Positions 4,300 to 47,367 of a stretch of 64,000 bases of DNA are shown one piece after another. Position numbers and translations under genes: made by a program. Location of the stretch: contig WQXN01000002.1 in the NCBI GenBank assembly GCA_009784815.1, positions 3,586 to 67,585 of the forward strand. Reading direction: 5' to 3'. The notes beneath the pieces are model-generated. The model searched no databases and was not told the origin of the DNA. It saw only the letters and a program-made list of their open reading frames with translations. The first letter of the stretch is position 1. Each line of letters starts with the position of its first letter. Origin of the DNA: Alphaproteobacteria bacterium (lineage in GTDB: Bacteria; Pseudomonadota; Alphaproteobacteria; Rs-D84).

Positions 4300-4328
4300 A
4301 TTCTACCTCCCCCATGAAGTTTTGTCAA
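4300..4328 (-). promoter_or_regulatory. Promoter cassette, minus orientation, locked variant: TTGACA-N17-TAGAAT with interrupted tract GGGGGAGG
   Basis: Revcomp of 4300-4328 = TTGACAAAACTTCATGGGGGAGGTAGAAT. -10 lies 18 nt upstream of start codon 4275. Arranged back-to-back with the 4344-4370 cassette. Confidence 0.45.
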
Positions 4329-4343
4329 GCGTAATTAAAATGC

Positions 4344-4370
4344 TTGACAAAATTCGGGGGGGGGTAGAAT
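4344..4370 (+). promoter_or_regulatory. Promoter cassette TTGACA-aaattc-G9-TAGAAT (spacer 15 nt)
   Basis: -35 at 4344-4349, G9 at 4356-4364, -10 at 4365-4370. Downstream UTR TAGAATGCGCTTATAAATAACTAAAAGGGTG...ATG is near-identical to the 5655-5690 UTR. Confidence 0.55.
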
Positions 4371-4400
4371 GCGCTTATAAATAACTAAAAGGGTGAAAAA

Positions 4401-4916
4401 ATGACAGATTCATACGAAGGTAAATACGTTAGTTTTACATACGGTCTGGACGATTCGGACGCGATCGCAAGAAAATATTACGGCGATCATTACGGCAAAT
4501 TCCCGAATTGGCTTCTTGCGGCGCGGACTTGCGACTTTCATCGATCCAGTTATGCGAAAAGAGCGGAAGAAATATTGCAAATCCAAGTATTGAGAGTGGC
4601 GAAGGAAAGCTTCACTGATCGCGGTATAACAAGACAGCCTATTCATGATCCGGAAAGCCTGTTTTTCTCGTGCCGTATAAAAACCGCTCGGGGTTTAAGT
4701 GCTTGGCATGGTATAGGCGCGCTTGATCTTGAAGATCGGGATTTTGCTGTTGACGCCGTATTCTGCGCGGCCAACTACATATCCGAGAGTTACGATGTTT
4801 ATAACGCGCTAGTTTCTTCGATAAGCGATCCTGATTATCCCGAAGGCGAAAAACATATAAGTAAGGAAATCCAAGTTCAAGAACTTGTCGGTATACTGAA
4901 AGAAGCTATCCGATAA
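4401..4916 (+). CDS. hypothetical protein (no signal peptide)
   Basis: 171-aa ORF with AAAAGGG RBS, downstream of poly-G promoter cassette, followed by a terminator. Confidence 0.55.
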   Translation: MTDSYEGKYVSFTYGLDDSDAIARKYYGDHYGKFPNWLLAARTCDFHRSSYAKRAEEILQIQVLRVAKESFTDRGITRQPIHDPESLFFSCRIKTARGLSAWHGIGALDLEDRDFAVDAVFCAANYISESYDVYNALVSSISDPDYPEGEKHISKEIQVQELVGILKEAIR

Positions 4917-4925
4917 TAAACATAC

Positions 4926-4950
4926 GCCCGGCTTTTGGCCGGGTGTTTTT
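4926..4950 (+). terminator. Rho-independent terminator
   Basis: GCCCGGC-TTTT-GGCCGGG stem-loop followed by TGTTTTTA. Confidence 0.55.
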
Positions 4951-4994
4951 ATCCCTTGATTTTTTTTCGCGCAAGGTATAACATCCCCACACGT

Positions 4995-5071
4995 GGCGGA
5001 GTAGCTCAGGTGGTTAGAGCGATGGAATCATAATCCACAGGTCGGGGGTTCGAGTCCCTTCTCCGCTACCA
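4995..5071 (+). tRNA. tRNA-Met (anticodon CAT). Elongator-type anticodon stem; could also be tRNA-Ile2 (lysidine).
   Basis: Cloverleaf GGCGGAG/CTCCGCT acceptor, TAGCTCAGGTGGTTAGAGC D-arm, anticodon loop AATCATAAT, GGTTCGAGTCC T-arm, encoded CCA. Confidence 0.85.
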
Positions 5072-5150
5072 CTAATTTCCAGTCTTTAAAAATTCACAGT
5101 CCTCGTAAAAAATGCGGGGGTCTTTTACATATAAATAGAAAGGATATAAA

Positions 5151-5600
5151 ATGATTAGAAAAGCTACTATGGCGGATGTGCCCGCGGTGTTAGAGTTGGT
5201 AAACATGAACGCCAAGCAGGGACTGATGCTAAGCAAAAGTCCGTACGACATTTATCAGCGGATTTTTACGTTTTTTGTTTACGAAAAGGGCGGCCAAGTG
5301 GTCGGCTGCGTGCGGCTTCAACCTTTGTGGAAAGATATTGCTGAAATCGCGTCTTTGGCCGTGGCCGAAGATTTTCGCAATCAAGGCATAGGCAGAGAGC
5401 TGGTCCAAGTTTGCATGACCGAGGCCAAACGCGCCAAAATTCCAAGGATATGCACTTTGACCTACCAGTGCGAATTCTTCAAAAAATGCGGATTCAAGGA
5501 AGTCCCAAGGGAAACCCTGCCGCATAAATTCTTTGGCGATTGCCTGCGCTGCCCAAAGGTCGAATGCTGCGATGAATACGCCTTTATAATAGATCTATGA
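5151..5600 (+). CDS. GNAT-family N-acetyltransferase (short ArgA-like amino-acid acetyltransferase)
   Basis: 149 aa; acetyl-CoA binding motif RNQGIGRELV and GNAT beta-strand pattern; AAAGGATA RBS. Confidence 0.65.
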   Translation: MIRKATMADVPAVLELVNMNAKQGLMLSKSPYDIYQRIFTFFVYEKGGQVVGCVRLQPLWKDIAEIASLAVAEDFRNQGIGRELVQVCMTEAKRAKIPRICTLTYQCEFFKKCGFKEVPRETLPHKFFGDCLRCPKVECCDEYAFIIDL

Positions 5601-5629
5601 TAAAAATCCTAATTTAATACAAAAATTAC

Positions 5630-5660
5630 TTGACAAAACATCATGGGGGGGGGGTAGAAT
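5630..5660 (+). promoter_or_regulatory. Promoter cassette TTGACA-aaacatcat-G10-TAGAAT (spacer 19 nt)
   Basis: -35 at 5630-5635, G10 at 5645-5654, -10 at 5655-5660. UTR duplicated from the 4365-4400 copy. Confidence 0.55.
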
Positions 5661-5690
5661 GCGCTTGTCAATAACCAAAAGGATTAAATT

Positions 5691-6185
5691 ATGGCTTCAA
5701 TTATAGAAATTTTAATGGAAGAAATAGACAAAGAAATTATTTCCCTCGAGGATTCTATTAAAAACAACACAAGGGAAGCAAACAAGCAAGAGCGGAATAA
5801 TTTTTCTTACTGCCCCATAAAGGAAGCGACTGTTGTTATATCAACCAGCTTTTCAGTGCGTATAGCCGATTACAGAAAGGCGAAAGAAGAATTGGTCGGA
5901 TTTGACGAGGATAAGATCAATAATAACCTGTTTTCGATTGTTACTCTTCTTGATGTAAAGACCGACGAAACATTAAAATATCTTCTTGCCCCGGTATTGG
6001 GCGGAGAAACTATCACGATAGGCACCGAAAAAATAGACGTTGTGTCAAGCTCTTCGCCCTTGGGCAACGAGTTGCTGAATGCAGAGGCGTCCACCCTTGA
6101 AAAAGAAAATTTTGTGCAGCTGAGCAAAAAGTTAAATGGAATCAGATACAAAGTTTTGGGTATACAAAAGGCCGTGGCTAAGTAA
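5691..6185 (+). CDS. GreA/GreB-like (Rnk-like) C-terminal-domain protein, putative transcription factor
   Basis: 164 aa. C-terminal segment ETITIGTEKIDVVSSSSPLGNELLNAEASTLEKENFVQL...IRYKVLGIQ parallels the GreA FKBP-like domain pattern (TYRIVG..EAD...ISxxSPIARGLIGKEEDDVV...VEFEVLKI). N-terminal half is coiled-coil like. Confidence 0.4.
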   Translation: MASIIEILMEEIDKEIISLEDSIKNNTREANKQERNNFSYCPIKEATVVISTSFSVRIADYRKAKEELVGFDEDKINNNLFSIVTLLDVKTDETLKYLLAPVLGGETITIGTEKIDVVSSSSPLGNELLNAEASTLEKENFVQLSKKLNGIRYKVLGIQKAVAK

Positions 6186-6190
6186 TAACT

Positions 6191-6463
6191 ATGGCAATAA
6201 AAAGAATACCGCAGAAAACAAAGCCTATATCGCGCGACGACAAGCTTCATATGTACGAAGTCGCGCGATCCGGCCGTATAACGCCGCTTGATCTTCCGGG
6301 ATTCGTCAAAAAGGCGTCGGTCGTATTTTTAATGGCGGCGGCAGCGGCGCCTTTGGTGTTTTCAGTGTGGTATTTCGATTATAAACTGCCTAAATTGGAA
6401 GGTAGTTGGGTAGCATCGTCTAAAATAATCGAAAATCATCGAAATAATTCTCTTGCTAAATAG
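6191..6463 (+). CDS. small membrane protein, hypothetical
   Basis: 90 aa with one hydrophobic segment; immediately follows previous gene. Confidence 0.35.
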   Translation: MAIKRIPQKTKPISRDDKLHMYEVARSGRITPLDLPGFVKKASVVFLMAAAAAPLVFSVWYFDYKLPKLEGSWVASSKIIENHRNNSLAK

Positions 6464-6689
6464 CCTGCTTAATTGTAGTCTTACCCCTGTGCGCTGGCAA
6501 CCGCCCGCGTACGCAAAAAACACCAATAAAGCACCGTAAGGAGAACGGAATGTCCCAAATGACCTTCTGTTTTATACCGTTGGCGCAGAATTATCATGCG
6601 CTTATCGCCGGAATGACTAACGTCCGAGGTGGTCGCGGTATCGTCCATTGCATGCTTTCGAAAAACATCTATATACAAAGGATTAAATT

Positions 6690-8513
6690 ATGCCAAAACA
6701 AGTATACGTGGACGCAGTCCACCCAGAGGAAGTCCGAGTAGCGGTAGTAGATAACAACAAAGTTTTAGATTTTGACGTTGAAACCACCACAAAACCTCAA
6801 ATAAAGGGCAACATCTACCTTGCCAAAGTCGTACGGGTCGAACCGTCCCTCCAGGCCGCCTTCGTCGAATACGGCGCGGGTAAGAATGGCTTTTTGCCTT
6901 TTTCGGAAATCAATCCCGATTATTACCAAGTCCAAACTGAAACCAAAAAAGCGATGATGGAGGCGGCTCATGCCAACATGATCGACGACGACGGCGATCA
7001 GGACGACGATAACGCGGAATTTGTCGAATACGACGATAACAGCGCCGGCGAGGACAACAAAGAAATATTAAAGCGTATGCGCGAATACAAAATTCAGGAC
7101 GTCATAAAACCGAAACAAATCATGCTGATACAGGGAGTAAAGGAAGAGCGCGGACAAAAAGGCGCGTCTATGACAACGTACCTGTCTTTGGCGGGGCGGT
7201 TTGCGGTATTTATGCCTAACTCGCGCAAGCGCAACCTTTACGGCATATCTAAAAAGATCAGCGGGAAAGAGGAAAGGGCGCGCCTGCGCGAAATCCTTCA
7301 CGGCCTGAAAATCCCGCGCGGTATGACGGTGGTTCTTCGCACTGCCGCAAGCGGAGCGGAAAAGGCCGAAATCGAAAAAGACTACGAATACCTGACTTCG
7401 CTTTGGAACGAAATAAGAAAGCAGACTTTCGAATCCGTCGCGCCCGCGATCATACATACCGAAGATTCCTTGCTTCGCCGCGTCGTCCGCGATTTCATAT
7501 CCGACGAAAACGACGTGCTGACGATCCAGGGCGACGAAGCCTTTGGCCAGGCGGTCGAAAACTTCAAGCTTATGCGCGGCAAGCTTCCAAAAAAGCAGAT
7601 CGTAAAATACGACGATAAAATTCCTTTGTTCGTGAAAGTTAATATCGAACAGCGGTTGGAAGGTTTGCACAAACCTGAAGTGACTCTGCCAAGCGGCGGA
7701 TCCATAGTGTTGAACCAGACCGAGGCTATGGTCGCGATCGACGTCAATTCGTCGCACGCGATCAAGGAAAAAAATATCGAGGAAACCGCGCTTAACACGA
7801 ACCTGGAAGCGGCCGAGGAAATCGCGGTGCAGCTGCGTCTTCGCGACATGGCGGGCATAATAGCGATCGACTTCATAGACATGGAAGAAGAAAAAAACCG
7901 CCGCAAAGTCGAAGCCCGCATGCGCGAGCTGATGAAGCGCGACCGCGCTCGAACTCAGATCGCGAAAATTAATAACTTCGGCGTCTTGATGCTTAGCCGT
8001 CAACGTATGCGCAGCAGCTTTATCGAAAGCTCGTACGTGCAGTGCCTGCATTGCACCGGCACCGGCGTAGTGCCTTCGATACAAACCGCTTCCGTGATCA
8101 TATTCCGCCACTTGCAGGAAAAGATGATGTCGAAAGTCATGAAAAAAATCGTTGTGTCTGTCCCGACGGACGTCGCCGTGTACCTGCTGAACCAAAAGCG
8201 CGAGGACTTGGCGAATCTGGAAGCGCAGTACGATGTCGACGTGGTGGTGCTTGCGGACGATGGCTTGGTCAGCATAAACCAGTACCAGATCATTAGCGTG
8301 CCGCTGGACTACAACGAGGAAGCCGCGCTTAAGGCGAACGAAGCCCCAAGCGAGGCGCCGCGAAAGAAGTCTCCCGATCGTCAGGCTGCGAAAAAACTTG
8401 TCGTGGATACGCCGGTGCACAGGTCAAACCGCAGGCGCGGCGGCCGTCACAGAAATCGCAATCAGCAAAAACCGCAGCCCAAGAAAAGCCTGTGGAAAAA
8501 ACTTGTGGGATAG
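6690..8513 (+). CDS. rne: Ribonuclease E/G (short form, 607 aa)
   Basis: N-terminal S1 domain (NIYLAKVVRVEPSLQAAFVEYGAGKNGFLPFSEI), DNase-I-like and Zn-link CxxC region (CLHCTGTG), Arg-rich basic tail. Long (~220 nt) 5' leader, typical of autoregulated rne. Confidence 0.88.
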   Translation: MPKQVYVDAVHPEEVRVAVVDNNKVLDFDVETTTKPQIKGNIYLAKVVRVEPSLQAAFVEYGAGKNGFLPFSEINPDYYQVQTETKKAMMEAAHANMIDDDGDQDDDNAEFVEYDDNSAGEDNKEILKRMREYKIQDVIKPKQIMLIQGVKEERGQKGASMTTYLSLAGRFAVFMPNSRKRNLYGISKKISGKEERARLREILHGLKIPRGMTVVLRTAASGAEKAEIEKDYEYLTSLWNEIRKQTFESVAPAIIHTEDSLLRRVVRDFISDENDVLTIQGDEAFGQAVENFKLMRGKLPKKQIVKYDDKIPLFVKVNIEQRLEGLHKPEVTLPSGGSIVLNQTEAMVAIDVNSSHAIKEKNIEETALNTNLEAAEEIAVQLRLRDMAGIIAIDFIDMEEEKNRRKVEARMRELMKRDRARTQIAKINNFGVLMLSRQRMRSSFIESSYVQCLHCTGTGVVPSIQTASVIIFRHLQEKMMSKVMKKIVVSVPTDVAVYLLNQKREDLANLEAQYDVDVVVLADDGLVSINQYQIISVPLDYNEEAALKANEAPSEAPRKKSPDRQAAKKLVVDTPVHRSNRRRGGRHRNRNQQKPQPKKSLWKKLVG

Positions 8514-8516
8514 CGA

Positions 8517-8960
8517 ATGGTTGATAATATAATCGTCCGCTCGGCCAAGCCGGAAGATTTTAAAGCGGTGCAGGAAGTGCAGCTTACGGGCGGCGATGAT
8601 GTTCTTACTTATGGTGCTGCGATCGAAATAGCCGATATGGAAATGCACGCCGCGAACCCCAAGGCGATCTTCGGCGTCGCCGAGGTGGACGGCCAAGTGA
8701 TTGGTTTTATTTACGGCGAGCAGCTGGTCGCAAGATGGGCGATGTTTTCATATCTGGTGGTAAAACCAAAATATCGCAGTATGGGCGTTGTGCGGAAACT
8801 TGGAGAATGGTCGATAAGTCTTTGCAAAGCCCGCGGCCTGAAATATCTTTTGTGTTACGTGGATAAGGATCGCCCGAAACTGATAAATTTTTACAAACAC
8901 TTCGGCTTTGAAGCTAGTCCGGGCGAATACGTGGAAATGATTAAAAAACTGGACTGGTAA
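8517..8960 (+). CDS. GNAT-family N-acetyltransferase
   Basis: 147 aa; GNAT core (VVKPKYRSMGVVRKLGEW...FYKHFGFE). Confidence 0.65.
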   Translation: MVDNIIVRSAKPEDFKAVQEVQLTGGDDVLTYGAAIEIADMEMHAANPKAIFGVAEVDGQVIGFIYGEQLVARWAMFSYLVVKPKYRSMGVVRKLGEWSISLCKARGLKYLLCYVDKDRPKLINFYKHFGFEASPGEYVEMIKKLDW

Positions 8961-9027
8961 TCCAATGCGGCCTAATCACTCCCTCACTCCTCGGAAAATA
9001 GGTGTATTTTTTGCTCAAAATTATCTG

Positions 9028-9057
9028 TTGACAAAACGTCATGGGGGGGGGTAAACT
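9028..9057 (+). promoter_or_regulatory. Promoter cassette TTGACA-aaacgtcat-G9-TAAACT (spacer 18 nt)
   Basis: -35 at 9028-9033, G9 at 9043-9051; AAAGGGAA RBS before ATG 9091. Confidence 0.5.
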
Positions 9058-9090
9058 GCAACCATAGAATTTAAACAAAGGGAATTTATC

Positions 9091-9771
9091 ATGAGCGATC
9101 AACACACGAAAGAGCAGGCACTTAATGAATTGGCGTATAAGCTTCGCGTGACTGCAAACGCAAGAACGTTCAAAGACGATATATTGTCGGCGACGCCGAA
9201 TAGGATTGGTTTTTCGGCCTGCTGCTTATGTGGCAAGGACGAATGCGATTGCGATAAGATAGAAAATAACCTCAGGGTCGAATACGTCAGGACTCTGCTT
9301 GAAATTGACCCAAGTCTTATACAGCTGACGCGCGGAGAATTGATGCCCGCCGACAAGCTGTGCGAAGACTGTCGCATATGCGAAGAATTGATCGATAATC
9401 CCGAAGACTGCCCTAGGCATGACGCTCCTTACAAAGTCGAATGCTATCATTCGTTCAGCCGCGGTATGGGACAGTTTGTCGCGCGCGCATGCGCGGGCAA
9501 ATTTGACGACGTTACGTTTGCAGAATATAATTTGAAAAGAGGCGTGGATGTCTGGGCAGTTTATGAACTTTATAATTCTATAGATTCATCGGTGCGCGAT
9601 AGTATAAGAAAAATAGTTGTTGGGTATTACCATATCAAGCTTGCCGATGGGACCAATCTTATGGGCGAAAGCGATGATATCGTGTCCTTGGTGCATGGTG
9701 CGTTTGCTCGGCAGCAGGGCATTCAAGGGCATCGTTTATTCAAAGCCGGACCCTGCCGCGGCAGCAAATAA
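9091..9771 (+). CDS. Cys-rich cytoplasmic hypothetical protein (14 Cys; CCLCGKDECDCD, CEDCRICE clusters). Possible metal-binding.
   Basis: 226-aa ORF; no signal peptide; behind poly-G cassette. Confidence 0.55.
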   Translation: MSDQHTKEQALNELAYKLRVTANARTFKDDILSATPNRIGFSACCLCGKDECDCDKIENNLRVEYVRTLLEIDPSLIQLTRGELMPADKLCEDCRICEELIDNPEDCPRHDAPYKVECYHSFSRGMGQFVARACAGKFDDVTFAEYNLKRGVDVWAVYELYNSIDSSVRDSIRKIVVGYYHIKLADGTNLMGESDDIVSLVHGAFARQQGIQGHRLFKAGPCRGSK

Positions 9772-9783
9772 TAAATTAATTGT

Positions 9784-9804
9784 CATCCCCGGCTTGATCG
9801 GGGA
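9784..9804. terminator. Bidirectional hairpin between convergent genes
   Basis: ATCCCCG-GCTTGAT-CGGGGAT perfect 7-bp stem. Confidence 0.4.
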
Positions 9805-9814
9805 TCTCAGTCGC

Positions 9815-10159: not shown

Positions 10160-12130
10160 CTATCCTCCGGACGGGGCGCCTCTGCTTCTGGTAGGAGTGG
10201 CCGCCACTGGAGCCGTCGGCGCGGAAGGAGCAGAGGAAGGTGCGGCAACCGGCGCTGAAGTTGGTGCGGGGGCAGACGGAGTCGAAAAAAAGGAGGCAGC
10301 ATCCAGCCGTTGTCCGCTATTTTGTCTTTCCCGCATCGCGTTCGCTTCGGCTGCGGACATATTATTCAAACCAGTGTCAGTTCGGGTTCCTGTAAACGTG
10401 CCCGTACCCCCCCCCACCGCTTCACTTGTCGTTGTGCTGCCGCCGCCGCTCGCGGCAACTTGATTTCTATTAGTTTCTCTATTCTGAAGAGCTATTTCTC
10501 GATTTTCTCCGGGTATTGATGTGATTTCAACTCGACCTTCTGCCTCTGGATTTAAAGCGCGATAGGTCGCCAAATTCGCCGCTGCATTATCAAAGTCGGC
10601 ATCAAATTGTGATTGGTCCGCTTGCGCTCTTGCAGCTGCCGCCGCTGCGGCTGCTCCGTTCATGGCGTCTGCATATCCGTCGGCTCCGCTGGCTCTGTTT
10701 GCGTTATCTATCGCCTCTTGTCCTCCGGTGCCGCCTGTATTGGTCCCTCTATCTCCGCGCGGTTGGATCAAAGCTTGTGGATCCGTTGGTTCGGCCGCAG
10801 AGGGCGATGATCCGGCACCGCCTTCGGGTGAAAAGGCTTCGATAGGAATGGCCTGTTGCGTTGAATCGAATTTTGTTTCTTCTTCTTTCTTGTCCAGCGC
10901 GCCGGCGCGTACGGCCGTGACAAGGCTTGCGGCTCCGACTCCAAGCCCCGCGCCAAGGAACGCCGCGCTTGCGCCTGCCGCGGTTACGTCGCGGTTGATC
11001 GCGTTCATAAGATACCTGGTTACGTCCACGCCGAACCATTCTTCTGTGCAAACAAAGTCGCCGCCCGGAGCGATCTTGCGCGAAGCCGGAGTGTATCTGC
11101 GCCCGTCCGCTTCAACCGAGAAGATCGCAGTGAAAGCGCATTCGCCGTTGCGATCGTCGAATACCGCCCCGACGGACGTGCACATATTGCGCATCGCGGG
11201 CATCATTGCGTCAAGCTCGGCCTGAAGCGCGTGTATTTGTTTTTCCCGCTCGACCCGCAGCGCCCCCATCATGTTCGTGAACCTGACTTGTAGATTGCTG
11301 TCGAACTGCCTGAACTCGTCATACACGGGCCGACATGCGGACAGGGCCTGGTTGATCCGCGCCTGCGTCACGCATCCGTTGAATCCGATCGCGACATGGC
11401 CAAGCAATGTTCCCGCCGCGCGCTGTGTCGCGCACTGGGTCTGCAAACAGCGCGAGTAAGCTTCGTTGCCGTTGATGATTTGTCCAAACAGCCATAGGCG
11501 CGCGTCGACTTCGACGTCGTCCCGTATTATTTTTCCATAAACGGAAAGCTCGGCTCCGGAACAATTGACCCGCGTGCGGCATCTGTTGAATCGTTCGCTC
11601 CATACTCCGTCGCCGTCGTTGAAGCATCTTTGCAGATTGTCCCCGCAGTCCTGTTTGACGCAGGCAAGAAGTTCGGTCGCGCACGGAGTGCGGTCGGTCG
11701 GATTTATCCTGCGCCTAAACTGTATCAAGGTTGCCTCGCGCCGCTCGCGGTCGCTTTGCGCTCCCAGCGCGCGCTCCCAAGCGTTGGTCCCGCCGCTGCG
11801 TCTGCCGCCGCTCATATCCTGCATGCGGGTTTTGATTCTGTCGGCGTTGGTTGTCGCCGTCGGCGGTTCTTCCGCAATTACTTCCGGTGCGTTAGCCTGC
11901 ACGACTTGCGCCGCGATAATTCCTGTGGGCGCAATACCCGGCGCCGCGCCGCGCGTAACAACGCCGCGCCCAGCGGTTGAGACTGTAGGCGCAGCACCTT
12001 CGGCGGGCGCTGTGGTTGTCGCCGGTATTCCGCGCGCCGCGCGTCCGGTTGGCGCGGGCGTGCTGGCGGATGCCGAAACCGCAATGGCGATCAAACCTGC
12101 CGATAAAAATTTTATGTATAATATTTTCAT
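10160..12130 (-). CDS. large secreted low-complexity protein: signal peptide, Pro/Ala/Thr linker, Cys-rich domain, glycine-zipper hydrophobic segment, poly-Ala and Ser/Pro/Ala tail
   Basis: 656-aa ORF. Signal peptide MKILYIKFLSAGLIAIAVSASA. Segment AAGASAAFLGAGLGVGAASLVTAV. Runs AAAAAAAARAQ and APAPTSAPVAAPSSAPSAPTAP. Start overlaps the upstream gene stop (ATGA). Contains a G9 tract. Confidence 0.6.
   Translation of the reverse strand: MKILYIKFLSAGLIAIAVSASASTPAPTGRAARGIPATTTAPAEGAAPTVSTAGRGVVTRGAAPGIAPTGIIAAQVVQANAPEVIAEEPPTATTNADRIKTRMQDMSGGRRSGGTNAWERALGAQSDRERREATLIQFRRRINPTDRTPCATELLACVKQDCGDNLQRCFNDGDGVWSERFNRCRTRVNCSGAELSVYGKIIRDDVEVDARLWLFGQIINGNEAYSRCLQTQCATQRAAGTLLGHVAIGFNGCVTQARINQALSACRPVYDEFRQFDSNLQVRFTNMMGALRVEREKQIHALQAELDAMMPAMRNMCTSVGAVFDDRNGECAFTAIFSVEADGRRYTPASRKIAPGGDFVCTEEWFGVDVTRYLMNAINRDVTAAGASAAFLGAGLGVGAASLVTAVRAGALDKKEEETKFDSTQQAIPIEAFSPEGGAGSSPSAAEPTDPQALIQPRGDRGTNTGGTGGQEAIDNANRASGADGYADAMNGAAAAAAAARAQADQSQFDADFDNAAANLATYRALNPEAEGRVEITSIPGENREIALQNRETNRNQVAASGGGSTTTSEAVGGGTGTFTGTRTDTGLNNMSAAEANAMRERQNSGQRLDAASFFSTPSAPAPTSAPVAAPSSAPSAPTAPVAATPTRSRGAPSGG
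10407..10415 (-). repeat. Homopolymeric G9 tract (C9 on + strand) inside the CDS 10160..12130, about 85 codons from its stop
   Basis: CCCGTACCCCCCCCCACCGC read directly; encodes ...AVGGGTGTF... Confidence 0.9.
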
Positions 12131-18275: not shown

Positions 18276-19037
18276 TTAATTCACTTTGAAATACGTGCAA
18301 GAGAATGTGGTTGAAAAGCCAAGCTTTTGAAATAGCTTTTCGTTAGTGCTTCCTCTTTCCGTCTGGCAAGTCAATGTCTTACAATTCTGACTAGCTGCCA
18401 ATTCTAAACAATAGCGGCATATCTGAATAAAAACACTTCCATATCTATATTTTGGAAGAACGCCAATCGAATTTATCTGCATAATTCCTTTCGAGATACA
18501 GCACATAATCTGCCCCACGATTTCTCCATTTTTATAAACATTTATCGGGACAAATTCAATGCCTTCGGGTGGTTGAATTTCAAAAAAGCGTTTTATTGAT
18601 TCAACTTCACCCTCATCGCATATCTCATATACTCCGCCGGGTGCTTCGTATATTTTTTGAAAATCCTCGGCAAACTTATTCTTGTCCCGAGCAATTTCAA
18701 AGGCTATGCCGCTATGGCGGTGTTGATATTTCGGCGCATTGGCAGTTTCCAGAAACATGAAAGAGTCTTCGGCAAATCGTTCGAGATTTGAAATTTGCGC
18801 CGTGCTTGCAGGAGTATGAAAAAGACAGACATCTTTTTGATATTTCTCTGAAATTTCCAGCCGCTTGTTAAGTGCCTCTTCCAAAGAGCAATCTTTCAAG
18901 ACAATAAAATTGTAAAATAAGTCATTCGTTTTACAAGATATGAAAACGCTATATTTATCAGACTTCATGATGCAATCTGAAGTTCCGAAATACATCATTT
19001 GCGACAGGTCTATATAATCAGCTAAATCTTTATCCAT
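18276..19037 (-). CDS. hypothetical protein with C-terminal GNAT-like acetyltransferase fold
   Basis: 253 aa; C-terminal IGVLPKYRYGSVFIQICRYCLELA...LFQKLGF pattern; AT-rich. Confidence 0.4.
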   Translation of the reverse strand: MDKDLADYIDLSQMMYFGTSDCIMKSDKYSVFISCKTNDLFYNFIVLKDCSLEEALNKRLEISEKYQKDVCLFHTPASTAQISNLERFAEDSFMFLETANAPKYQHRHSGIAFEIARDKNKFAEDFQKIYEAPGGVYEICDEGEVESIKRFFEIQPPEGIEFVPINVYKNGEIVGQIMCCISKGIMQINSIGVLPKYRYGSVFIQICRYCLELAASQNCKTLTCQTERGSTNEKLFQKLGFSTTFSCTYFKVN

Positions 19038-19804: not shown

Positions 19805-20410
19805 TTATTTCGTTGCATCTTGATTTGCTGTTAATCTTTTATACAGTCTGCAGTCGGGCAGCAATGACGCGGGTTCTTCAATCCACAGCTTTTGAAAATC
19901 GGGACAGTTTCTGTGCGTCATGATCTTGATCGTCTGCACAAGTTTATCAGCGGGAATCCGGGAAAGATCGGTGCCTGCGAATATATCGATCAATGCCGAG
20001 GCTCGTTTGCAGAACAAGCTGTCATTCCGGCCCTCGGTCGGAATTACAAGAACGTTGTTCACCATTTTGATGCGGGTCTGTTTGACTAAGGCTTTGTTTT
20101 CTTTGTGTGCCGTTATCGTCGCCGCGCGTATATGAGAGTGCGCGTTGGCGAACAAGCAAAGTCCGCTGCCGGTGTTTGATAATATGACGCCCAAAGTGTC
20201 GTCGAATTCTCCGACGTGCTTTGCGATTATGTCTCCGACGTGTTTGGCTTGGAAGTTTGCGATATTGTATTTTTGCGAATAGCTGTGGTGCGCGCCGATA
20301 TTATAAATCTCGTTAAAAACATAAGGATTTACCCAATCCATTAACCTGTCCGCGACGTGCGCGCTGCAATTAGTGGCGGCAATGTAAATGGTCGGTAGTC
20401 TGACTTTCAT
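19805..20410 (-). CDS. hypothetical protein (201 aa), cytoplasmic
   Basis: ORF downstream of minus-oriented poly-G cassette; no confident family assignment. Confidence 0.5.
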   Translation of the reverse strand: MKVRLPTIYIAATNCSAHVADRLMDWVNPYVFNEIYNIGAHHSYSQKYNIANFQAKHVGDIIAKHVGEFDDTLGVILSNTGSGLCLFANAHSHIRAATITAHKENKALVKQTRIKMVNNVLVIPTEGRNDSLFCKRASALIDIFAGTDLSRIPADKLVQTIKIMTHRNCPDFQKLWIEEPASLLPDCRLYKRLTANQDATK

Positions 20411-20437: not shown

Positions 20438-20467
20438 ATACTACCCCCCCCCATTAAGTTTTGTCAA
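20438..20467 (-). promoter_or_regulatory. Promoter cassette (minus) TTGACA-aaacttaat-G9-TAGTAT (spacer 18 nt). Its -35 overlaps the TGA stop of the upstream methyltransferase gene.
   Basis: C9 at 20444-20452, TGTCAA at 20462-20467, ATACTA at 20438-20443. Confidence 0.5.
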
Positions 20468-24251: not shown

Positions 24252-24710
24252 TCACACCCCGGTCGAGCCATGCCCTCCATCTCCGCGGTCGGTCTTGTCG
24301 AACTCGTCGGCGGATTCTATCTCGGTGAATTCGGCCTGCCATACTGGTTCGATTACTACCTGTCCTACCCTCATTCCGCGTTCGATTTTAAAATCTTCGC
24401 CTGACATATTTATAACGGACATTGATACTTCTCCGACGTAACCGTTGTCGATTGTCCCGACTCCGGACATCAGGATTATTCCCTTGGCCCCTATGCCGCT
24501 TCGAGACCTTAACTGATAGCCGAATCCCGGTTCAAGCTGCATGCCGAAGCCAAGAGGAATTCTTATGCGTTCAAGAGGTTTCAGCACCACGTCCGCGTCT
24601 ACGCACGCGCGGGTATCGAATCCCGAATCTGTGTCATAAGCATATTTAAGCGGCCCCCATGACTTGTCGTAATTCGGCATATAAAGGATTTTTGCTTTGA
24701 CTTTATTCAT
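24252..24710 (-). CDS. dut: dUTP diphosphatase (dUTPase)
   Basis: 152 aa; motifs GFDTRA, RSRSGIG, GTIDNGYVGE and C-terminal DRGDGGHGSTG (motif 5). Confidence 0.75.
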   Translation of the reverse strand: MNKVKAKILYMPNYDKSWGPLKYAYDTDSGFDTRACVDADVVLKPLERIRIPLGFGMQLEPGFGYQLRSRSGIGAKGIILMSGVGTIDNGYVGEVSMSVINMSGEDFKIERGMRVGQVVIEPVWQAEFTEIESADEFDKTDRGDGGHGSTGV

Positions 24711-29217: not shown

Positions 29218-29246
29218 TTGACAAAACATCTCGGGTGGGGGAGAAT
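29218..29246 (+). promoter_or_regulatory. Promoter cassette, locked variant: TTGACA-aaacatctc-GGGTGGGGG-GAGAAT (spacer 17 nt)
   Basis: Same -35/spacer start/-10 'GAATGC' as the 5630 copy, but the G tract is interrupted by T. Confidence 0.45.
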
Positions 29247-29270: not shown

Positions 29271-29951
29271 ATGTCTGAGACTAAAACTCTTTACTTTGCT
29301 CCAAGCCCGTTCGCGGACAATTTTCCGATAGTGCGTGAAATCTGGAATGGTATGGAAAAAATGAATATCTCGAATCTTAAAATGGTTGGAATCCAGGCGC
29401 ATTCGAAAACCGAATACAGCATCATAAATTCACCCGATGATTTCAAACCGGTCCAAGGCATTCTTGATGTTCATATCGCGCCGATGCTTGCCCTTTGCTT
29501 GATAAATGACAATTGGCTGGCCGAATGCGAGGACGACAAGGGCGCGTATAAAGAGTGGAAGTTCGAGCCGTGGAAGAACCACGAAAGCGGAGTTTACTAT
29601 CCGCTTAAGGACGCGACGGAATTCGGTCTTGCCTTTGGCGGTTGCGGTCGTATGGGCGCGATGATGATCTATTCCTGGACCCGCTTCATGTCCGCATACG
29701 AACCGTCGCATACAATTCAAGTTACGCGTCAAAATTTTAATATCAACGGCCTGACCGCTGCCATAGCTCCAAGTTTTGATCCTGATATAAAACAAATAAT
29801 ACAATCCGCGCGCACTATGTTGACGACTGATTTTACAGGAGATGCTTTCGGTCTGGATGCAAATAAGGCGGATATAGGATTAACGATGGGCGGTCTTAAT
29901 CGGAACCATAGTCTTAAGTATTTTGGCATTGACCGCCTTCGCCAAATTTGA
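29271..29951 (+). CDS. hypothetical protein (start taken at MSETKTLYF; the six-frame ORF start at 29235 lies inside the promoter)
   Basis: AAAAAGGA RBS 7 nt before ATG 29271. Confidence 0.5.
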   Translation: MSETKTLYFAPSPFADNFPIVREIWNGMEKMNISNLKMVGIQAHSKTEYSIINSPDDFKPVQGILDVHIAPMLALCLINDNWLAECEDDKGAYKEWKFEPWKNHESGVYYPLKDATEFGLAFGGCGRMGAMMIYSWTRFMSAYEPSHTIQVTRQNFNINGLTAAIAPSFDPDIKQIIQSARTMLTTDFTGDAFGLDANKADIGLTMGGLNRNHSLKYFGIDRLRQI

Positions 29952-33448: not shown

Positions 33449-33610
33449 TGACCAGTTTTATTTTATATCACTCGATTGGAAGCATTTTTAAGCGCCGTCT
33501 TGTAATACTCTTCTACAGAAAATTAGGCTTTTGTCAATCATATTTTTCTTGATTTTAGAGGCGATTTATGGTATAATGCCCTTATCTCCCCTAGATATAA
33601 GGAAACAGAT

Positions 33611-42430: not shown

Positions 42431-42644
42431 TTCACCTGCTCCTTTTTCAGCAAAAAATAATGGGCGCATACGCGCCCCAGCATGCCGCCAAAGCGCATGA
42501 CCGGTTATTCTATGATAATTATGTTTTTGTTGTTCATGGCAAGCATTATATATAATGGAAAATAAAATTTCAAGCACTACTTTCTTCTGCTTGCAAACTG
42601 CCGCAAAAATCCCTATGGTAAGCCTAAGACATAGTAGATGCTAA

Positions 42645-43142
42645 ATGAAAATTCTGGCGGCCCTTTTTATCCTTACAATCCTATCGCTGCCCGCGTTCGC
42701 GGCGGCCAGAATTCCACCGCTTAACGCTGACGCGACAGTCGACCGCATAATAGACGGTGACACCTTTGTCGCGACCCTGACTCTGGAAAACGGCGCAAGG
42801 GTAGGGGTGCGGGTAAGATTTATGGAAATTGACGCTCCCGAACTGTCCGGCGACTGCGAGCGTGAACGGCAAATGGCCCAAGCTTCCAAAGTCCGACTTG
42901 GCGAAATCGTTCCGATCGGCAGCACGGTGACATTAACAGAAATCAAAGACGATAAATACCAAGGCAGAATAAACGCGTACGTTTTTGTTGGCGACCTAGA
43001 CGTCGGCGCAAAAATGATCGCGGAAAACCACGCAATTCCATACGGCGGAGGGCGCCGAAGCCCATGGTGCACAGACCAAGAAATAGCCGCCGAACAAAAA
43101 AGAGTCCTTCTGTCTATACATAATGCCAATACAATTAAATAG
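42645..43142 (+). CDS. secreted thermonuclease (SNase-like) family protein
   Basis: Signal peptide; IDGDTF...VRFMEIDAPE motif. Confidence 0.65.
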   Translation: MKILAALFILTILSLPAFAAARIPPLNADATVDRIIDGDTFVATLTLENGARVGVRVRFMEIDAPELSGDCERERQMAQASKVRLGEIVPIGSTVTLTEIKDDKYQGRINAYVFVGDLDVGAKMIAENHAIPYGGGRRSPWCTDQEIAAEQKRVLLSIHNANTIK

Positions 43143-43199
43143 CGCTTGACTAAAATCCCAAAAATGTAAACAATCCAAAGTCAATTTTAAGGGACAGAA

Positions 43200-43436
43200 A
43201 TGAAAGTTACTACTAATATAAGCAATTCATTAAGCCAAATCCTGGCCGATCCGCGCGTGCTCAATGATAAAACAGGGACCGAAGCGTATGCAAGACCAAT
43301 AGTAAGCGCCAATACCGTCGCAGACATGACGCCTGAAAAACTGGCCTTAAGGAATGAGGCCATCAAAAAAGAATTCGCCGGGCTTCCCCGTACCACTGCA
43401 TACGCATTACGCGCTTATGCTTTTCATCAAATCTAA
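43200..43436 (+). CDS. hypothetical protein
   Basis: 78-aa ORF. Confidence 0.3.
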   Translation: MKVTTNISNSLSQILADPRVLNDKTGTEAYARPIVSANTVADMTPEKLALRNEAIKKEFAGLPRTTAYALRAYAFHQI

Positions 43437-43478
43437 GATTTGCACCGTTTTAATTCTTATATTGATTGTCCGGGAAAA

Positions 43479-44072
43479 ATGCTATACTCCGCCATGCTTC
43501 GTAAAATCGTCATATTCGTTGCGCTGACTATCGCTCCGTTAGCGGTCCGTGCCGCAAATCCGATATTCGGTGATTTTCAAAACCAGTTCCGCGCGGATAT
43601 AACCTGGCAAGTGGATCATTACGCCGCCGCGGTGCGTAATTTCGTCATAGGCTACGCGCAACCTAATACGTTCTTTCGGCTTCCTGGCCGCCGCAGTATC
43701 CACTTGGGCTATATGGCCGGGACTACGCATTGGTGGGCAATCGAGCCGACAGACCCGAACGCCCGCGGCAAAAAAATTGAAAAGCGGTGTCAGCATCGCA
43801 GTATCTCAACCGCGATGGCGGGCTTTATGCAGGACCTGGTGTTTCTAAGCGCGTATAATTTTTACCTTGGCGCCGGCATAGGGCCCTATGTTAAAGATCA
43901 CAGACGCGACTTCGTCCAAACCAACCTTATTATAGGCGAGCGAGCTTTCCTAGGCTACCGGTTCGAACGGTTCAACGTCGAACTGATCGCAAGTCATTTT
44001 TCGAACGGGCATCTGTCGTTGCTTAATCGCGGCATAAACAGCGTTGGCCTTGGCGTAACATGGAATTTTTAA
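43479..44072 (+). CDS. PagL-like lipid A deacylase / acyloxyacyl hydrolase family outer-membrane protein
   Basis: Signal peptide; HFSNG catalytic-type motif; C-terminal GVTWNF beta-barrel signature. Confidence 0.5.
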   Translation: MLYSAMLRKIVIFVALTIAPLAVRAANPIFGDFQNQFRADITWQVDHYAAAVRNFVIGYAQPNTFFRLPGRRSIHLGYMAGTTHWWAIEPTDPNARGKKIEKRCQHRSISTAMAGFMQDLVFLSAYNFYLGAGIGPYVKDHRRDFVQTNLIIGERAFLGYRFERFNVELIASHFSNGHLSLLNRGINSVGLGVTWNF

Positions 44073-44082
44073 GGAGATCTGA

Positions 44083-44646
44083 ATGAGAAAACTAATGGCA
44101 ATAATATTTGCGATCGCAATATCCGCGCCCGCGTTCGCCGATCGTCCGAATCCGTTTTTCTTCGGTGACACGCAGAACCAGATGGGCGTTCAATTGGGCC
44201 AAAGCGCGGGGCCGGGCGCGATCCTGACGATAATTCCTGGCAACGGCTGGGACCTTGAACCGTTTCAAGTGATCGCGCTTCAGTACAGTCAACCGACCGA
44301 GTTTTTTAGACTACCCGCGCGCCTAAACCTGCACGCCGGATTCTTCGTGGCCTGGAACAACATGGCCGATGATTACAATGATCCCTTCGCGGGCGCGTCA
44401 TTGGACGTGGCTTTTTTCCAGTGGGATGATTTTTATCTTGGTGCGGGGCTTGGCGGATATATCAAGCCGACTTACGACGGCCGCATGGATTCGCTGTTGA
44501 TGTTCGGTACGAAAATATTTTTGGGATACAGGTTTGCGGATCTATGGTCGGTGGAAATATACAGCCAGCACATGGACAACGCGGGCCTGATGGCCGTCAA
44601 CGGAGGCTATAACTTCTTCGGCCTTCAGGTATTACGGAATTTTTAA
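44083..44646 (+). CDS. PagL-like outer-membrane protein, tandem paralog
   Basis: Same architecture (HMDNAG, ...VLRNF terminal Phe); shared FFRLP / YLGAG(I/L)G blocks with upstream paralog. Confidence 0.5.
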   Translation: MRKLMAIIFAIAISAPAFADRPNPFFFGDTQNQMGVQLGQSAGPGAILTIIPGNGWDLEPFQVIALQYSQPTEFFRLPARLNLHAGFFVAWNNMADDYNDPFAGASLDVAFFQWDDFYLGAGLGGYIKPTYDGRMDSLLMFGTKIFLGYRFADLWSVEIYSQHMDNAGLMAVNGGYNFFGLQVLRNF

Positions 44647-45437
44647 CCGCGAACTCCGAAAGAATTGCCGCTTTCATATCGCTTTAATCCGCGATAAAAG
44701 AACCAAACTGAAAACATAAAGAACGCGGTTGTGACGCCTATCAGAGTCAGCGCGGTGCTCCATTTTGGATTGCTCACCAATTCCACTGGAAGGAAAGTCA
44801 GTGCGCCTGCCGGGATCAAGAACGTCAAGGCTAACCGTACATTCCCGGTATAGATCGATCCGGGTCGGGTTGAAATAGTCAATAACGAGTTTATGACCTG
44901 TCCGCACCAGCCTTCTGCGTCTTTCAGCCAGAACGCTAACGATCCGGCGAATACTCCTATCGCGAAGAATGTTAAAAACGCGGTCAAAGCGCAAATTAGT
45001 ACAAGCCCGGCGGTCTGCCATGTTGTGAATCCACTCCATATTACGAATGCGATTCCCATGATCAAATCCCCCATGGCCGAAGGGTGTGACCTTGATCCCG
45101 CGACGTTCAGTAATATGTTTTTGGGTTGCAATATGAATGTGTCCAGTTCTCCGCGGTCTATTATTCCTGCCAACACGTCGCCGATTCCGCGAAAGCAGAA
45201 CGAGTACACAGCATACCCGATCATGAAAAATCCTGTCATCAGTATAAAGTGGTTTACGTTCCAGCCGTTGATCTCGCGGAACATATAGAACACTATCGCC
45301 CAAGATACGAACAACAGCACGTTGTTGACTGCCATGAACAGTACTTCGATTATGAAGTTAAGTTTAAGTGAAACCGCCGAGGACACGTTCGTCTTCATAA
45401 GCTTCCAGAAAAATCGCCAAGTCGGTTTAATTGCCAT
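44643..45437 (-). CDS. ABC-2 family transporter permease
   Basis: 264 aa, 6 TM. Confidence 0.5.
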   Translation of the reverse strand: MAIKPTWRFFWKLMKTNVSSAVSLKLNFIIEVLFMAVNNVLLFVSWAIVFYMFREINGWNVNHFILMTGFFMIGYAVYSFCFRGIGDVLAGIIDRGELDTFILQPKNILLNVAGSRSHPSAMGDLIMGIAFVIWSGFTTWQTAGLVLICALTAFLTFFAIGVFAGSLAFWLKDAEGWCGQVINSLLTISTRPGSIYTGNVRLALTFLIPAGALTFLPVELVSNPKWSTALTLIGVTTAFFMFSVWFFYRGLKRYESGNSFGVRG

Positions 45438-46197
45438 TTACGCTCACCTTTTTAATCAAAGCTGCGAACAGTCGGTTCGCAAGCAGGAATAATATTCCGC
45501 ACCACATGGCCAAATGCGCAGCCGTAAGTCCGGCCGCTGCCCATGAAAATTCGTAGGTAAGGCGCGATATTTCGTAAAGTGCCCATGGGAATGGGGTCCA
45601 ATAAGCAATGTTTGTCATAAATTGCGGATACACGGTAAGCGGAAAGAACAAGCCTCCGAAAAGGACCAGCAGTTTGTTCCATATTATGTAGATCGATTCG
45701 GTTTGCTGCATGTAAATACCAAGAAGGCTAATCACTACCTGCGCCAGAATTGCGAAAAACCCCGACATGATCATAAGAACAAAAATTATTCCTATGCCTT
45801 GCGGGGTGCTGGGCCAGCCTCCGCCTAAAATATATGATATAGCGATTCCGCCCGTCATTATGATCGGTAGTCGCGCACAGAACGATCCAAAATTTTCGGA
45901 TATCTTCTGGCTTAGATACGTGAATGGCCTCATAAGCGAATACCCTATGTTTCCAGTGCGTATGTCGTTCTGTATCTTAACCCTAAGCTTTTCATCTATC
46001 GAAAATATTATTGTTTCGCCCATCACGACATACCATACCATGTCCGCGGGCGCGAATCCCTGGTATCCTATCACAAGCCAAAGCTGCAAAGTGACGAACG
46101 CGACTACCGCAAGGAACAACAGCCTAAAGGCCATGATTGTTGGATTGCGCCATTGGTCTTCTGCCGCGGTCTTGAAAAACAACCAAAACTTTTTCAT
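45427..46197 (-). CDS. ABC-2 family transporter permease
   Basis: 256 aa, 6 TM; overlaps neighbours. Confidence 0.5.
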   Translation of the reverse strand: MKKFWLFFKTAAEDQWRNPTIMAFRLLFLAVVAFVTLQLWLVIGYQGFAPADMVWYVVMGETIIFSIDEKLRVKIQNDIRTGNIGYSLMRPFTYLSQKISENFGSFCARLPIIMTGGIAISYILGGGWPSTPQGIGIIFVLMIMSGFFAILAQVVISLLGIYMQQTESIYIIWNKLLVLFGGLFFPLTVYPQFMTNIAYWTPFPWALYEISRLTYEFSWAAAGLTAAHLAMWCGILFLLANRLFAALIKKVSVNGN

Positions 46198-47019
46198 TTC
46201 GAATATATGTCCCGTATTATTTCTTCCATGCTTGGTTCTTCTATCGATATGTCGGCGATCGCTTCCTTTTCGATTATTTCGCCCAAAGCCTTTTGAAGCG
46301 AAACGTCCCTGGTGTCGATTTCAAATCTTGATACTTGTCCCTTGGCGGTCGTGGCCGTGATGACTTTTTTCGACGGATACGTGGATTTTAATTTTTGAAT
46401 GCTTTCGTCTATTACGATTTTTCCGTGGTTTATTATGATCGCGCGCGTGCAGACGTCTTCTATATCTCCCGCATCGTGTGAAGTAAGGATTATAGTCGTA
46501 TCCTCCCTCTTGTTCATGTCTTTCAATACCTGCCGGATTTTGGCTTTGGCGACGACATCAAGGCCGATTGTGGGTTCGTCCAAAAATAAAACCTTCGGAT
46601 TGTGGAGTAGGGAGGCAACGATTTCGCACCGCATGCGTTCGCCAAGTGAAAAGGTGCGGACGGGACGATCCATAAGCTCGTCTATTTCGAAAATTTTCAC
46701 CAAGTCTTTAAGACGTTTTCTGAACGTCGAATCCGGTATGTTGTAGACGGCCGCCAGCAGTTCAAAGCTTTTGATCGGCGACAAATGCTGCCAAAGTTGG
46801 GAACGTTGTCCGAACACTGCGCCAATATTATACGTCAGCGTTTTTCTATCTTCCCATGGCGTAAGGCCGAATACGTTCGCCTTGCTTTATGCGGAACGAT
46901 AGTTTGTCGACGGCCTTTTTGATTTTGTATTTAGGAAAAAATATCGACCGCAAAAATCCTTGCTTCTTCTTTATGCGGAAGTACTTTGATAGGTTTTTAA
47001 CTTCTATTGCGTAAGACAT
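46194..47019 (-). pseudogene. ABC transporter ATP-binding protein disrupted by deletion + frameshift that removes Walker A
   Basis: N-terminal frame MSYAIEVKNLSKYF...LSFRIKQGE then RIRPYAMGR-stop at ~46855. The C-terminal frame (46194-46817) carries signature/Walker B ([32 protein letters not shown]) and H-loop. No GxxGxGKT anywhere. Confidence 0.55.
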
Positions 47020-47045
47020 GGCGAATCCTTGAAATGACTGCCGTT

Positions 47046-47075
47046 ATCCTACCCCCCCCCTCAAATATAAGTCAA
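47046..47075 (-). promoter_or_regulatory. Promoter cassette (minus) TTGACT-tatatttga-G9-TAGGAT (spacer 18 nt)
   Basis: C9 at 47052-47060; AGTCAA at 47070-47075. Confidence 0.45.
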
Positions 47076-47090
47076 GATGTAATTAGTCAA

Positions 47091-47303
47091 TTATCTGACT
47101 GCTTGTGCGGTTGCCACGGCAAAGCGATCTTTTGCTGTCTGCAGCCTTAATTCAAAAATCTCAATAAAAAATTCCTTAAGTACGGTAGCTGTCTGCGCGT
47201 CCATATTTGCCGAGTTTTTAATAAATTCAAAATCCTTATTAATATCCGCCTGCGCCTTATCGCAATCCGCCAAGAATATTTCTGTTGCTTGTTTTTCTGT
47301 CAT
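47091..47303 (-). CDS. small hypothetical protein (70 aa from MTEKQATEIF). The six-frame ORF N-terminus MGGGRLAL is translation of the promoter G tract.
   Basis: ORF behind poly-G cassette. Confidence 0.4.
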   Translation of the reverse strand: MTEKQATEIFLADCDKAQADINKDFEFIKNSANMDAQTATVLKEFFIEIFELRLQTAKDRFAVATAQAVR

Positions 47304-47337
47304 CTGATTTGCCTTTATATACGGGTTTCGCAGTGCC

Positions 47338-47367
47338 AGTCTACCCCCCCCCATTTCATTTTGTCAA
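47338..47367 (-). promoter_or_regulatory. Promoter cassette (minus) TTGACA-aaatgaaat-G9-TAGACT (spacer 18 nt)
   Basis: C9 at 47344-47352; TGTCAA at 47362-47367. Confidence 0.5.

Follow-up and report, generated by a model that had tools for sequence, protein, structure and literature searches.

The window analysed here is a 64,000-nucleotide (nt) stretch of contig WQXN01000002.1 from the metagenome-assembled genome (MAG) of an uncultured alphaproteobacterium (GCA_009784815.1, positions 3,586 to 67,585), and it carries a dispersed set of promoters with a long run of G in the spacer between the −35 and −10 hexamers. Six intact sites have the form TTGAC(A/T)-N6-9-G9/10-TAnnnT, and two more copies have an interrupted G run. 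These cassettes are probably independent cis switches, i.e. sigma-70-type promoters with a slippage-prone G9–G10 run in the spacer. All eight sites had been proposed in an earlier reading of the sequence (the original prediction) and all were found where it had placed them; programmatic re-derivation also reproduced its spacings of 15, 19, 18 (four sites) and 17 base pairs (bp; two sites). Of the G8–G10 tracts it described, G9 (five sites) and G10 (one site) were found and G8 was not. The cassettes and the genes behind them, several of which are orphan genes (ORFans), are listed below with protein lengths in amino acids (aa); ORF stands for open reading frame.

4300–4328, minus strand: interrupted "locked" copy, back-to-back with the cassette at 4344; TTGACA, 17-nt spacer with GGGGGAGG, TAGAAT; 277-aa orphan gene (3442–4275, minus strand)
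4344–4370, plus strand: intact cassette; TTGACA, 15-nt spacer (AAATTC and G9 at 4356–4364), TAGAAT; 171-aa orphan gene (4401–4916, plus strand)
5630–5660, plus strand: intact cassette; TTGACA, 19-nt spacer (AAACATCAT and G10 at 5645–5654), TAGAAT; 164-aa orphan (5691–6185) and then a 90-aa ORF (6191–6463), both plus strand
9028–9057, plus strand: intact cassette; TTGACA, 18-nt spacer (AAACGTCAT and G9 at 9043–9051), TAAACT; 226-aa Cys-rich ORFan (9091–9771, plus strand)
20438–20467, minus strand: intact cassette; TTGACA, 18-nt spacer (AAACTTAAT and G9, read as C9 at 20444–20452 on the plus strand), TAGTAT; 201-aa protein with a weak, distant RpiB/LacAB match (19805–20410, minus strand)
29218–29246, plus strand: interrupted, degenerate "locked" copy; TTGACA, 17 nt (AAACATCTCGGGTGGGG) with the interrupted run GGGTGGGG, −10 hexamer decayed to GAGAAT; 226-aa orphan (29271–29951, plus strand)
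47046–47075, minus strand: intact cassette; TTGACT, 18-nt spacer (TATATTTGA and G9, read as C9 at 47052–47060 on the plus strand), TAGGAT; ABC-2 exporter operon (ATPase 46194–47019, permeases 45427–46197 and 44643–45437, minus strand)
47338–47367, minus strand: intact cassette; TTGACA, 18-nt spacer (AAATGAAAT and G9, read as C9 at 47344–47352 on the plus strand), TAGACT; 70-aa helical orphan (47091–47303, minus strand)

The run is always G and never C on the non-template strand and adjoins the −10 hexamer in 8/8 sites, and its length sets that of the spacer, as had been claimed. On sequence, TTGAC(A/T) and TAnnnT flank the run and place it between −35 and −10, and with G9 (n = 5) and G10 (n = 1) the tracts are in the length range (~8 G/C or more) of hypermutable repeats. 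The ATG lies 24–34 nt from the end of the −10 hexamer and is preceded by an AAGG/AAAGG ribosome-binding site. Consensus −35 and −10 hexamers, short leaders and ribosome-binding sites together give the cassettes the look of sigma-70-type promoters, in line with the original prediction. The copy at 4300–4328 matches the consensus at 11/12 positions with a spacer of 17, and both interrupted copies share the 17-bp spacer.

The strict pattern TTGAC-N6-12-G8-TA was matched six times in the window, vs 0.00 matches expected from 100 dinucleotide-preserving shuffles of the window. Counts of G/C runs fall off geometrically from one to six nt (18240, 5020, 914, 138, 34 and 4, respectively), none are seven or eight nt long, six have nine nt and one has ten; given this gap, the long runs do not belong to the upper end of a random length distribution. 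Six of the seven runs longer than six nt in the 64-kb window are promoter sites, which corresponds to about one candidate switch per 10 kb, and the seventh is an intragenic G9.

The cassettes are restricted to non-housekeeping genes. No long G run was found upstream of lon, groES (which has a sigma-32-type box), ileS, accDA, lysA, rne or plsX, and the other TTGACAAAA promoters in the window, at 33537 (minus strand) and 34675 (plus strand), are also without one. The GC content of cassette-driven genes is 39–48% vs 51–53% for groEL, lon, ileS and rne. The RNase E/G gene (6690–8513) does lie on the same strand as the cassette at 5630, further downstream. Except for the RpiB-like protein and the ABC exporter, the cassette-driven genes gave no Pfam, NCBIfam, PHROG or meaningful PADLOC match, and all-against-all BLASTP detected no paralogy among the cargo proteins. 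Searches returned only the query itself for the 164-aa protein (among 5.8 billion clusters) and for the 226-aa protein at 9091–9771 (among 1.84 billion representatives, full HMMER), and found no close relative of the 201-aa RpiB-like protein. A homologue of the latter in a relative (contig L129) is 40% identical and has an ordinary TTGACA-N16-TATGAT promoter with no G run.

The downstream products lack signal peptides, as had been noted (0/8 signal-peptide-like N-termini), and the exporter is indeed decayed: about 45 codons including Walker A are gone from the ATPase gene (46194–47019) and a frame break leaves pieces of 57 and 207 aa, so judged from its sequence this gene is a pseudogene. The two permease genes of the operon look intact. 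The description of the 164-aa product as "GreA-like" was not sustained, with no Pfam/NCBIfam match at E ≤ 0.01, no Protein Data Bank (PDB) match at E ≤ 1 and no homologue; a single-sequence AlphaFold (AF2) model was unusable (predicted local distance difference test score, pLDDT, 47.7). A phage or mobile origin of the cargo was rejected on the absence of PHROG matches and of similarity to fetched loci beyond tRNAs, and defence-system cargo on the absence of any meaningful PADLOC match. A structured RNA or riboswitch in the leaders was likewise rejected, as Rfam gives only rRNA and tRNAs and the leaders measure ~17–27 nt.

Poly-G tracts between −35 and −10 are described for Neisseria meningitidis porA and Treponema pallidum TP0126, with optimal transcription at 17 bp (PMC7864442), hence the precedent named in the original prediction is documented in that account. 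By analogy, slipped-strand mispairing at replication would add or remove one G in the run adjoining the −10 hexamer, and the −35/−10 distance would move in 1-bp steps, from 17 (G8) to 18 (G9) to 19 bp (G10) at the five sites whose non-G part is 9 nt long. The gene 24–34 nt downstream would thereby shift, heritably and reversibly, between stronger and weaker transcription. Most copies would stand one step from the 17-bp optimum, that at 5630 two steps, and that at 4344 (6 nt and G9, 15 bp) two below it, while the interrupted copies may be switches frozen by point mutations at the 17-bp optimum, the strongest state. Acting in cis and unlinked, the switches would give a population in which the expression states of lineage-specific genes are mixed combinatorially. 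For this organism, slippage, the change of expression and any adaptive value are inferred. Reiterative transcription (transcriptional slippage) was ruled out since the run is upstream of the −10 hexamer and is not transcribed by its own promoter, and a G-quadruplex since a single run of G9–10 cannot fold an intramolecular quadruplex.

The same design is widespread in other bacteria. A scan of one genome per species with the pattern TTGACAAAA-N3-8-G8-TA detected at least 118 loci from many phyla, and the uniqueness implied by the original prediction does not hold, with the same architecture in >118 genomes of many phyla. Taxa among the matches listed include Clostridia, Bacilli, Erysipelotrichaceae, Treponema, other spirochaetes and gut Alphaproteobacteria, and also Elusimicrobia, Lentisphaerae, Verrucomicrobiota, Fusobacterium, Paceibacterota, Microcystis and others. 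Among the 126 matches listed, the TA was completed to TAnnnT right after the run in 95%, and positions 4 and 5 strongly favour A. In a metagenome scan that left the sequence after the run free (TTGACAAAANNNNAT-G8+), TAnnnT directly followed the run in 59/64 matches (46/51 unique loci), vs a chance of ~1/64. The spacers of the 51 unique loci measured 17 (n = 6), 18 (n = 23), 19 (n = 14) and 20 bp (n = 8). As to orientation, the G version of the pattern was matched in six viral contigs and the C version in none. The fetched DNA (1.24 Mb) also held 17 long G/C runs of incidental origin, of which TAnnnT adjoined four when read as G and none when read as C.

The commonest spacer of G-run promoters is 18 bp (9 nt and G9), in the window and in unrelated bacteria alike. 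Candidate causes of this mode are a mutational equilibrium at G9, a selected near-optimal "poised" state, and an altered poly(dG) helix geometry. The role of G at −14 in promoters is known (extended −10), and a G run adjoining the −10 hexamer would leave −13 to −15 occupied by G, as in a partial extended −10, at any tract length.

Signal-peptide-like N-termini occur in 82/133 (62%) of the ORFs behind such promoters across phyla, vs 223/919 (24%) of the background ORFs at the same loci, and type IV pilin-like leaders are found among this cargo. Enrichment of secreted cargo is a classical signature of phase variation. Furthermore, three groups of human-gut loci differ in tract length between contigs with conserved flanks:

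Group GCTAAT: nine contigs; G9, G10 and G11; flanks 93–100% identical
Group TCGAAT: three contigs; G10 and G11; flanks 97.7–98% identical
Group TAGAAT..TACAAT: three contigs; G8 and G10; flanks 95.5–97% identical

Length variation between samples with conserved flanks is the behaviour expected of contingency loci and agrees with the measurements in T. pallidum given below; the nine-contig locus shows clearly how a promoter tract can vary in nature in a gut commensal. At this locus (contigs L138, L144, L152, L162, L163, L168, L170, L183 and L186) the promoter reads TTGACAAAAGCTAAT-Gn-TATACT and lies upstream of a small secreted protein (MKKFLAMLCAVALAALCAVSAFA...).

The mechanism itself is textbook (porA, TP0126/tprL, fim, hif); new are the host lineage, the number of times that one cassette recurs, and what it drives, namely ORFans, a pseudogene and an RpiB-like protein but no secreted product. 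Bordetella pertussis fim2 and fim3 combine poly-C in the promoter with the activator BvgA, and the divergent Haemophilus influenzae pair hifA/hifB has one shared (TA)n repeat in its promoter. In both, a promoter repeat shifts the spacing of elements, as the G runs of the window would, and the hif arrangement resembles the back-to-back cassettes at 4300 and 4344, but here each divergent promoter owns a G run, one of the two interrupted. Among the closest known systems is porA as described in PMC7864442, where a G run inside a sigma-70 spacer sets the spacing by its length and so transcription. However, porA is one locus encoding a major outer-membrane porin of a pathogen, whereas in the window a common cassette sequence is found at six to eight loci of an uncultured alphaproteobacterium, and the products are without signal peptides.

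T. pallidum has several G8–G11 promoter tracts per genome (TP0126, tprL, tprE/G/J), and a mode of G9 is common to both organisms: its tprL tract has 7–11 G in vivo with G9 predominant, and reporter output differs between G8 and G10 (PMC7864442). Length varied in 24/46 of the polyG/C tracts of 8 nt or more in T. pallidum clones (PMC10013896). Its targets are putative outer-membrane proteins for which variation was measured; in the window the candidate switches, read from sequence, stand before ORFans, a decayed transporter gene and the gene of an RpiB-like protein. For Campylobacter jejuni NCTC11168, 29 loci with polyG/C of 7 or more are reported in PMC4965091. The bimodal run-length spectrum of the window is like that of C. 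jejuni, which has dozens of G8–G11 tracts per small genome, but these are mostly intragenic translational switches in surface-modification genes, whereas 6/7 of the window's long runs are in promoter spacers.

Within this organism, ENA assembly ERZ27264051 contains the window DNA on a 180-kb contig, and the Logan assemblies of SRR10512954 and SRR5215205 contain it too. The two Logan assemblies, independent of each other, both break inside the G10 tract of the cassette at 5630 (5645–5654), where one contig (L123) ends ...CATGGGGGGGGG and the other (L002) starts GGGGGGGGGTAGAAT, with exactly nine G each; the same contigs continue through the G9 tracts at 4356, 9043 and 10407. One possible reading is that molecules with G9 and G10 coexist, since the de Bruijn graph would then branch at this point. 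A sequencing or assembly artefact (two-colour poly-G) as the origin of the tracts was ruled out, as they are internal and of equal length in MEGAHIT, Logan and NCBI assemblies, and the design is also present in finished isolate genomes, e.g. Sellimonas caecigallum JCM 35759. Relatives with 82–88% RNase E identity have one promoter-type tract in ~77 kb (L129 14674–14684, TTGATT-N9-G11-TAGACT, before a GT92 glycosyltransferase gene), hence the high density in the window is lineage-specific and recent. The neighbourhoods of the RNase E homologues in these relatives are non-syntenic, and the cargo proteins have no homologues by which orthologous promoters could be traced in sister species.

The copies are partly related to each other. 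Their alignment is conserved mostly in functional elements, with the consensus TTGACAAAAC-TCAT-G9-TAGAATGC...AAAGGA...ATG. Two pairs are closer: 4356–4403 and 5646–5693 are 85% identical over 48 nt, including the entire 5′ untranslated region (5′UTR), and 5630–5653 and 9028–9051 are 96% identical over 24 nt. The module has therefore partly spread by duplication and, given the shared sequence, the eight copies are not eight independent events. Near-identical promoter and 5′UTR modules before unrelated genes are also the mark of "mobile promoters", which propagate by duplication; unlike these, the window cassettes show no transposon-like ends or target duplications, and apart from the near-copy pairs their similarity is mostly limited to functional elements. 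A 16-nt block spanning ribosome-binding site and start codon, AAAGGATTAAATTATG, is repeated exactly at 5678–5693 (the 164-aa ORFan) and 6677–6692 (RNase E/G), with a chance of ~0.006 for that 7.3-kb region, which suggests that the translation start of the ORFan may have been copied from the housekeeping gene, or the reverse.

Several observations count against switching. The tracts hardly differ in length (G9 at five sites, G10 at one), and consensus lengths are identical in all assemblies of this organism; the contig breaks at G10 could stem from Illumina homopolymer sequencing errors. The modal spacer is 18 and not 17 bp, and the copy at 4344, with 15 bp, is two steps off the optimum. As the cassettes share sequence they may be duplicates and thus not eight independent observations. 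Surface, secreted or restriction-modification cargo is typical of the family of genes made phase-variable by simple sequence repeats (SSRs), though not strictly defining, and it is missing here, with 0/8 signal-peptide-like N-termini and no PADLOC defence matches. The targets are not of the surface or restriction-modification kind and one is a pseudogene, which weakens the case for selection on switching.

The uniformity of the tracts would also suit a fixed promoter element, an explanation we consider rather unlikely, in which the G run serves structure or recognition (through G at positions −13 to −15, part of an extended −10, or through a rigid A-like spacer), purifying selection keeps its length and thereby sets promoter strength or supercoiling sensitivity, and slippage is noise. 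Near-uniform lengths that are equal in all assemblies speak for it, the run is always non-template G adjoining the −10 hexamer (8/8 in the window, 6 vs 0 in viral contigs, 4 vs 0 among incidental runs), and the modal spacer of 18 recurs in unrelated bacteria. However, orientation and adjacency fit equally a switch that keeps its −10-proximal contacts constant, and in other gut bacteria tracts of this architecture vary in length from sample to sample. G8–G11 tracts are measurably unstable in T. pallidum (PMC10013896, PMC7864442), housekeeping promoters of the window manage without a G run, and the relative with the RpiB-like homologue drives it from an ordinary spacer. Alternatively, the runs may be a neutral by-product in a decaying genome, expanded beyond a threshold for slippage where a change of length is tolerated (in spacers and at gene 3′ ends), with one module copied before accessory genes and no selected function. 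The ABC ATPase pseudogene is a sign of decay, the cassettes resemble each other in spacer and 5′UTR (85% over 48 nt, 96% over 24 nt), the targets are ORFans, two more G9 runs lie near the 3′ ends of ORFs, and the tracts are recent, with one promoter-type tract in ~77 kb of the relatives at 82–88% RNase E identity. Neutral expansion would nonetheless have to account for the absence of runs of 7–8 nt and of long runs in other intergenic DNA or in C orientation, and for locked copies exactly at 17 bp; independent lineages with the same placement and an enrichment of secreted proteins argue for selection on the architecture generally, and we regard this explanation as improbable.

The original prediction spoke of a regulon. 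This term does not fit, because nothing couples the sites: each has its own cis tract and generic sigma-70 hexamers, with no link in trans and no linked regulator or methyltransferase. A true regulon, in which a trans factor (a G-tract-binding protein or an alternative sigma factor) recognises TTGACAAAAC-TCAT-G9-TAGAATGC and co-regulates the genes, would explain why sequence beyond the hexamers is common to five to six copies. Yet the hexamers are canonical for sigma-70, TTGACAAAA also heads the G-run-free promoters at 33537 and 34675, the copies at 4344 and 47075 do not conserve the spacer half-site, there is no candidate regulator nearby, and comparable G-run promoters are found in unrelated phyla, where the spacers are unrelated too, all of which makes co-regulation in trans very improbable.

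Returning to independent cis switches, a wider proposal can be made tentatively: the G run adjoining the −10 hexamer might be a cross-phylum, orientation-specific "contingency promoter" design whose commonest form, at 18 bp, is one step off the optimum, and which in this termite/gut-type alphaproteobacterial lineage might have been copied as a module before young, lineage-specific, non-secreted ORFans. If so, only a random subset of cells would express genes that have newly arisen or been acquired, and multi-locus SSR phase variation would extend from the surface antigens of pathogens to commensals or symbionts and to cytoplasmic or effector-like cargo. In a recent review of phase variation, the cargo is said to consist predominantly of surface structures and restriction-modification systems, and it is left open whether genomes with many phase-variable loci belong to pathogens only or whether this impression reflects database bias (PMC11868660). 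The window is a concrete candidate counter-example, with dense predicted switches in an uncultured alphaproteobacterial MAG and ORFan, non-secreted cargo. More broadly, the design is common in gut MAGs of many phyla, length-polymorphic between metagenomes and enriched before secreted proteins; given these cross-phylum regularities, promoter-spacer poly-G tracts could be mined systematically from metagenomic reads as a map of commensal contingency genes. Should the tracts prove stable, what remains would be a promoter variant that is unusual yet ordinary.

A second, intragenic class of long G runs is also suggested for this genome. The seventh long run of the window, which the original prediction had missed, is a coding-strand G9 at 10407–10415 (minus strand) and not a promoter copy. 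It lies at codon 572 of a 656-aa ORF (10160–12130) that is rich in Ala, Gly and Thr, with a signal-peptide-like N-terminus and a Pro/Ala/Ser-rich tail. A change to G8 or G10 is predicted to truncate the product at 587 or 584 aa, respectively, and to remove this tail, making the run a candidate site of translational phase variation. The homologue of this protein in a relative (contig L127, 49% identity) has no tract. The 9 kb past the window contain one additional G9, also intragenic: it lies at 19011–19019 of the fetched locus L198, ~7 kb past the window end on the same contig, inside a 305-aa ORF without a Pfam match and ~50 codons before the end of that ORF.

The remainder of the window (49.7% G+C) contains housekeeping genes (RNase E/G, GroEL, Lon, IleS, fused AccD-AccA and LysA), tRNAs (n = 5) and the following features:

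1–2612: 23S rRNA gene, 3′ part (Rfam)
2851–2965: 5S rRNA gene (Rfam)
56223–57920, minus strand: AccD-AccA fusion (acetyl-CoA carboxylase carboxyltransferase beta and alpha subunits), one 565-aa ORF

ORFs listed within 1–2612 and 2851–2965 are spurious because this region is rRNA, and the ORF at 63238–63987 probably starts outside the window. An alphaproteobacterial host, as originally proposed, is supported by the RNase E, which matches a protein of NCBI "MAG: Alphaproteobacteria bacterium" at 100% identity; the nearest RNase E relatives (82–88% identical) are labelled "MAG: Rickettsiales bacterium", and their neighbourhoods are non-syntenic with the window. Comparison of the window with every fetched locus revealed no similarity other than tRNAs. 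All copies of the window DNA (the NCBI MAG, ERZ27264051 and the two Logan runs) are 100% identical to it outside the 23S gene, and all available assemblies represent one clone. Mismatches are confined to the 23S gene (21 and 4 in the ENA and Logan contigs) and probably result from chimeric assembly of conserved rRNA. Contigs of the Ga0123356 series (L165, which is Ga0123356_10011586, L172, L181, L187 and L158) carry TTGACAAAA-N6-G9-TAGnTT followed by an AAAGGA ribosome-binding site and ATG. The first of these has two window-style promoters within its 8.6 kb, and one protein that it encodes shares 63% identity with the 152-aa ORF at 24252–24710 of the window; the source of this contig may be a more distant relative that shares the cassette habit.

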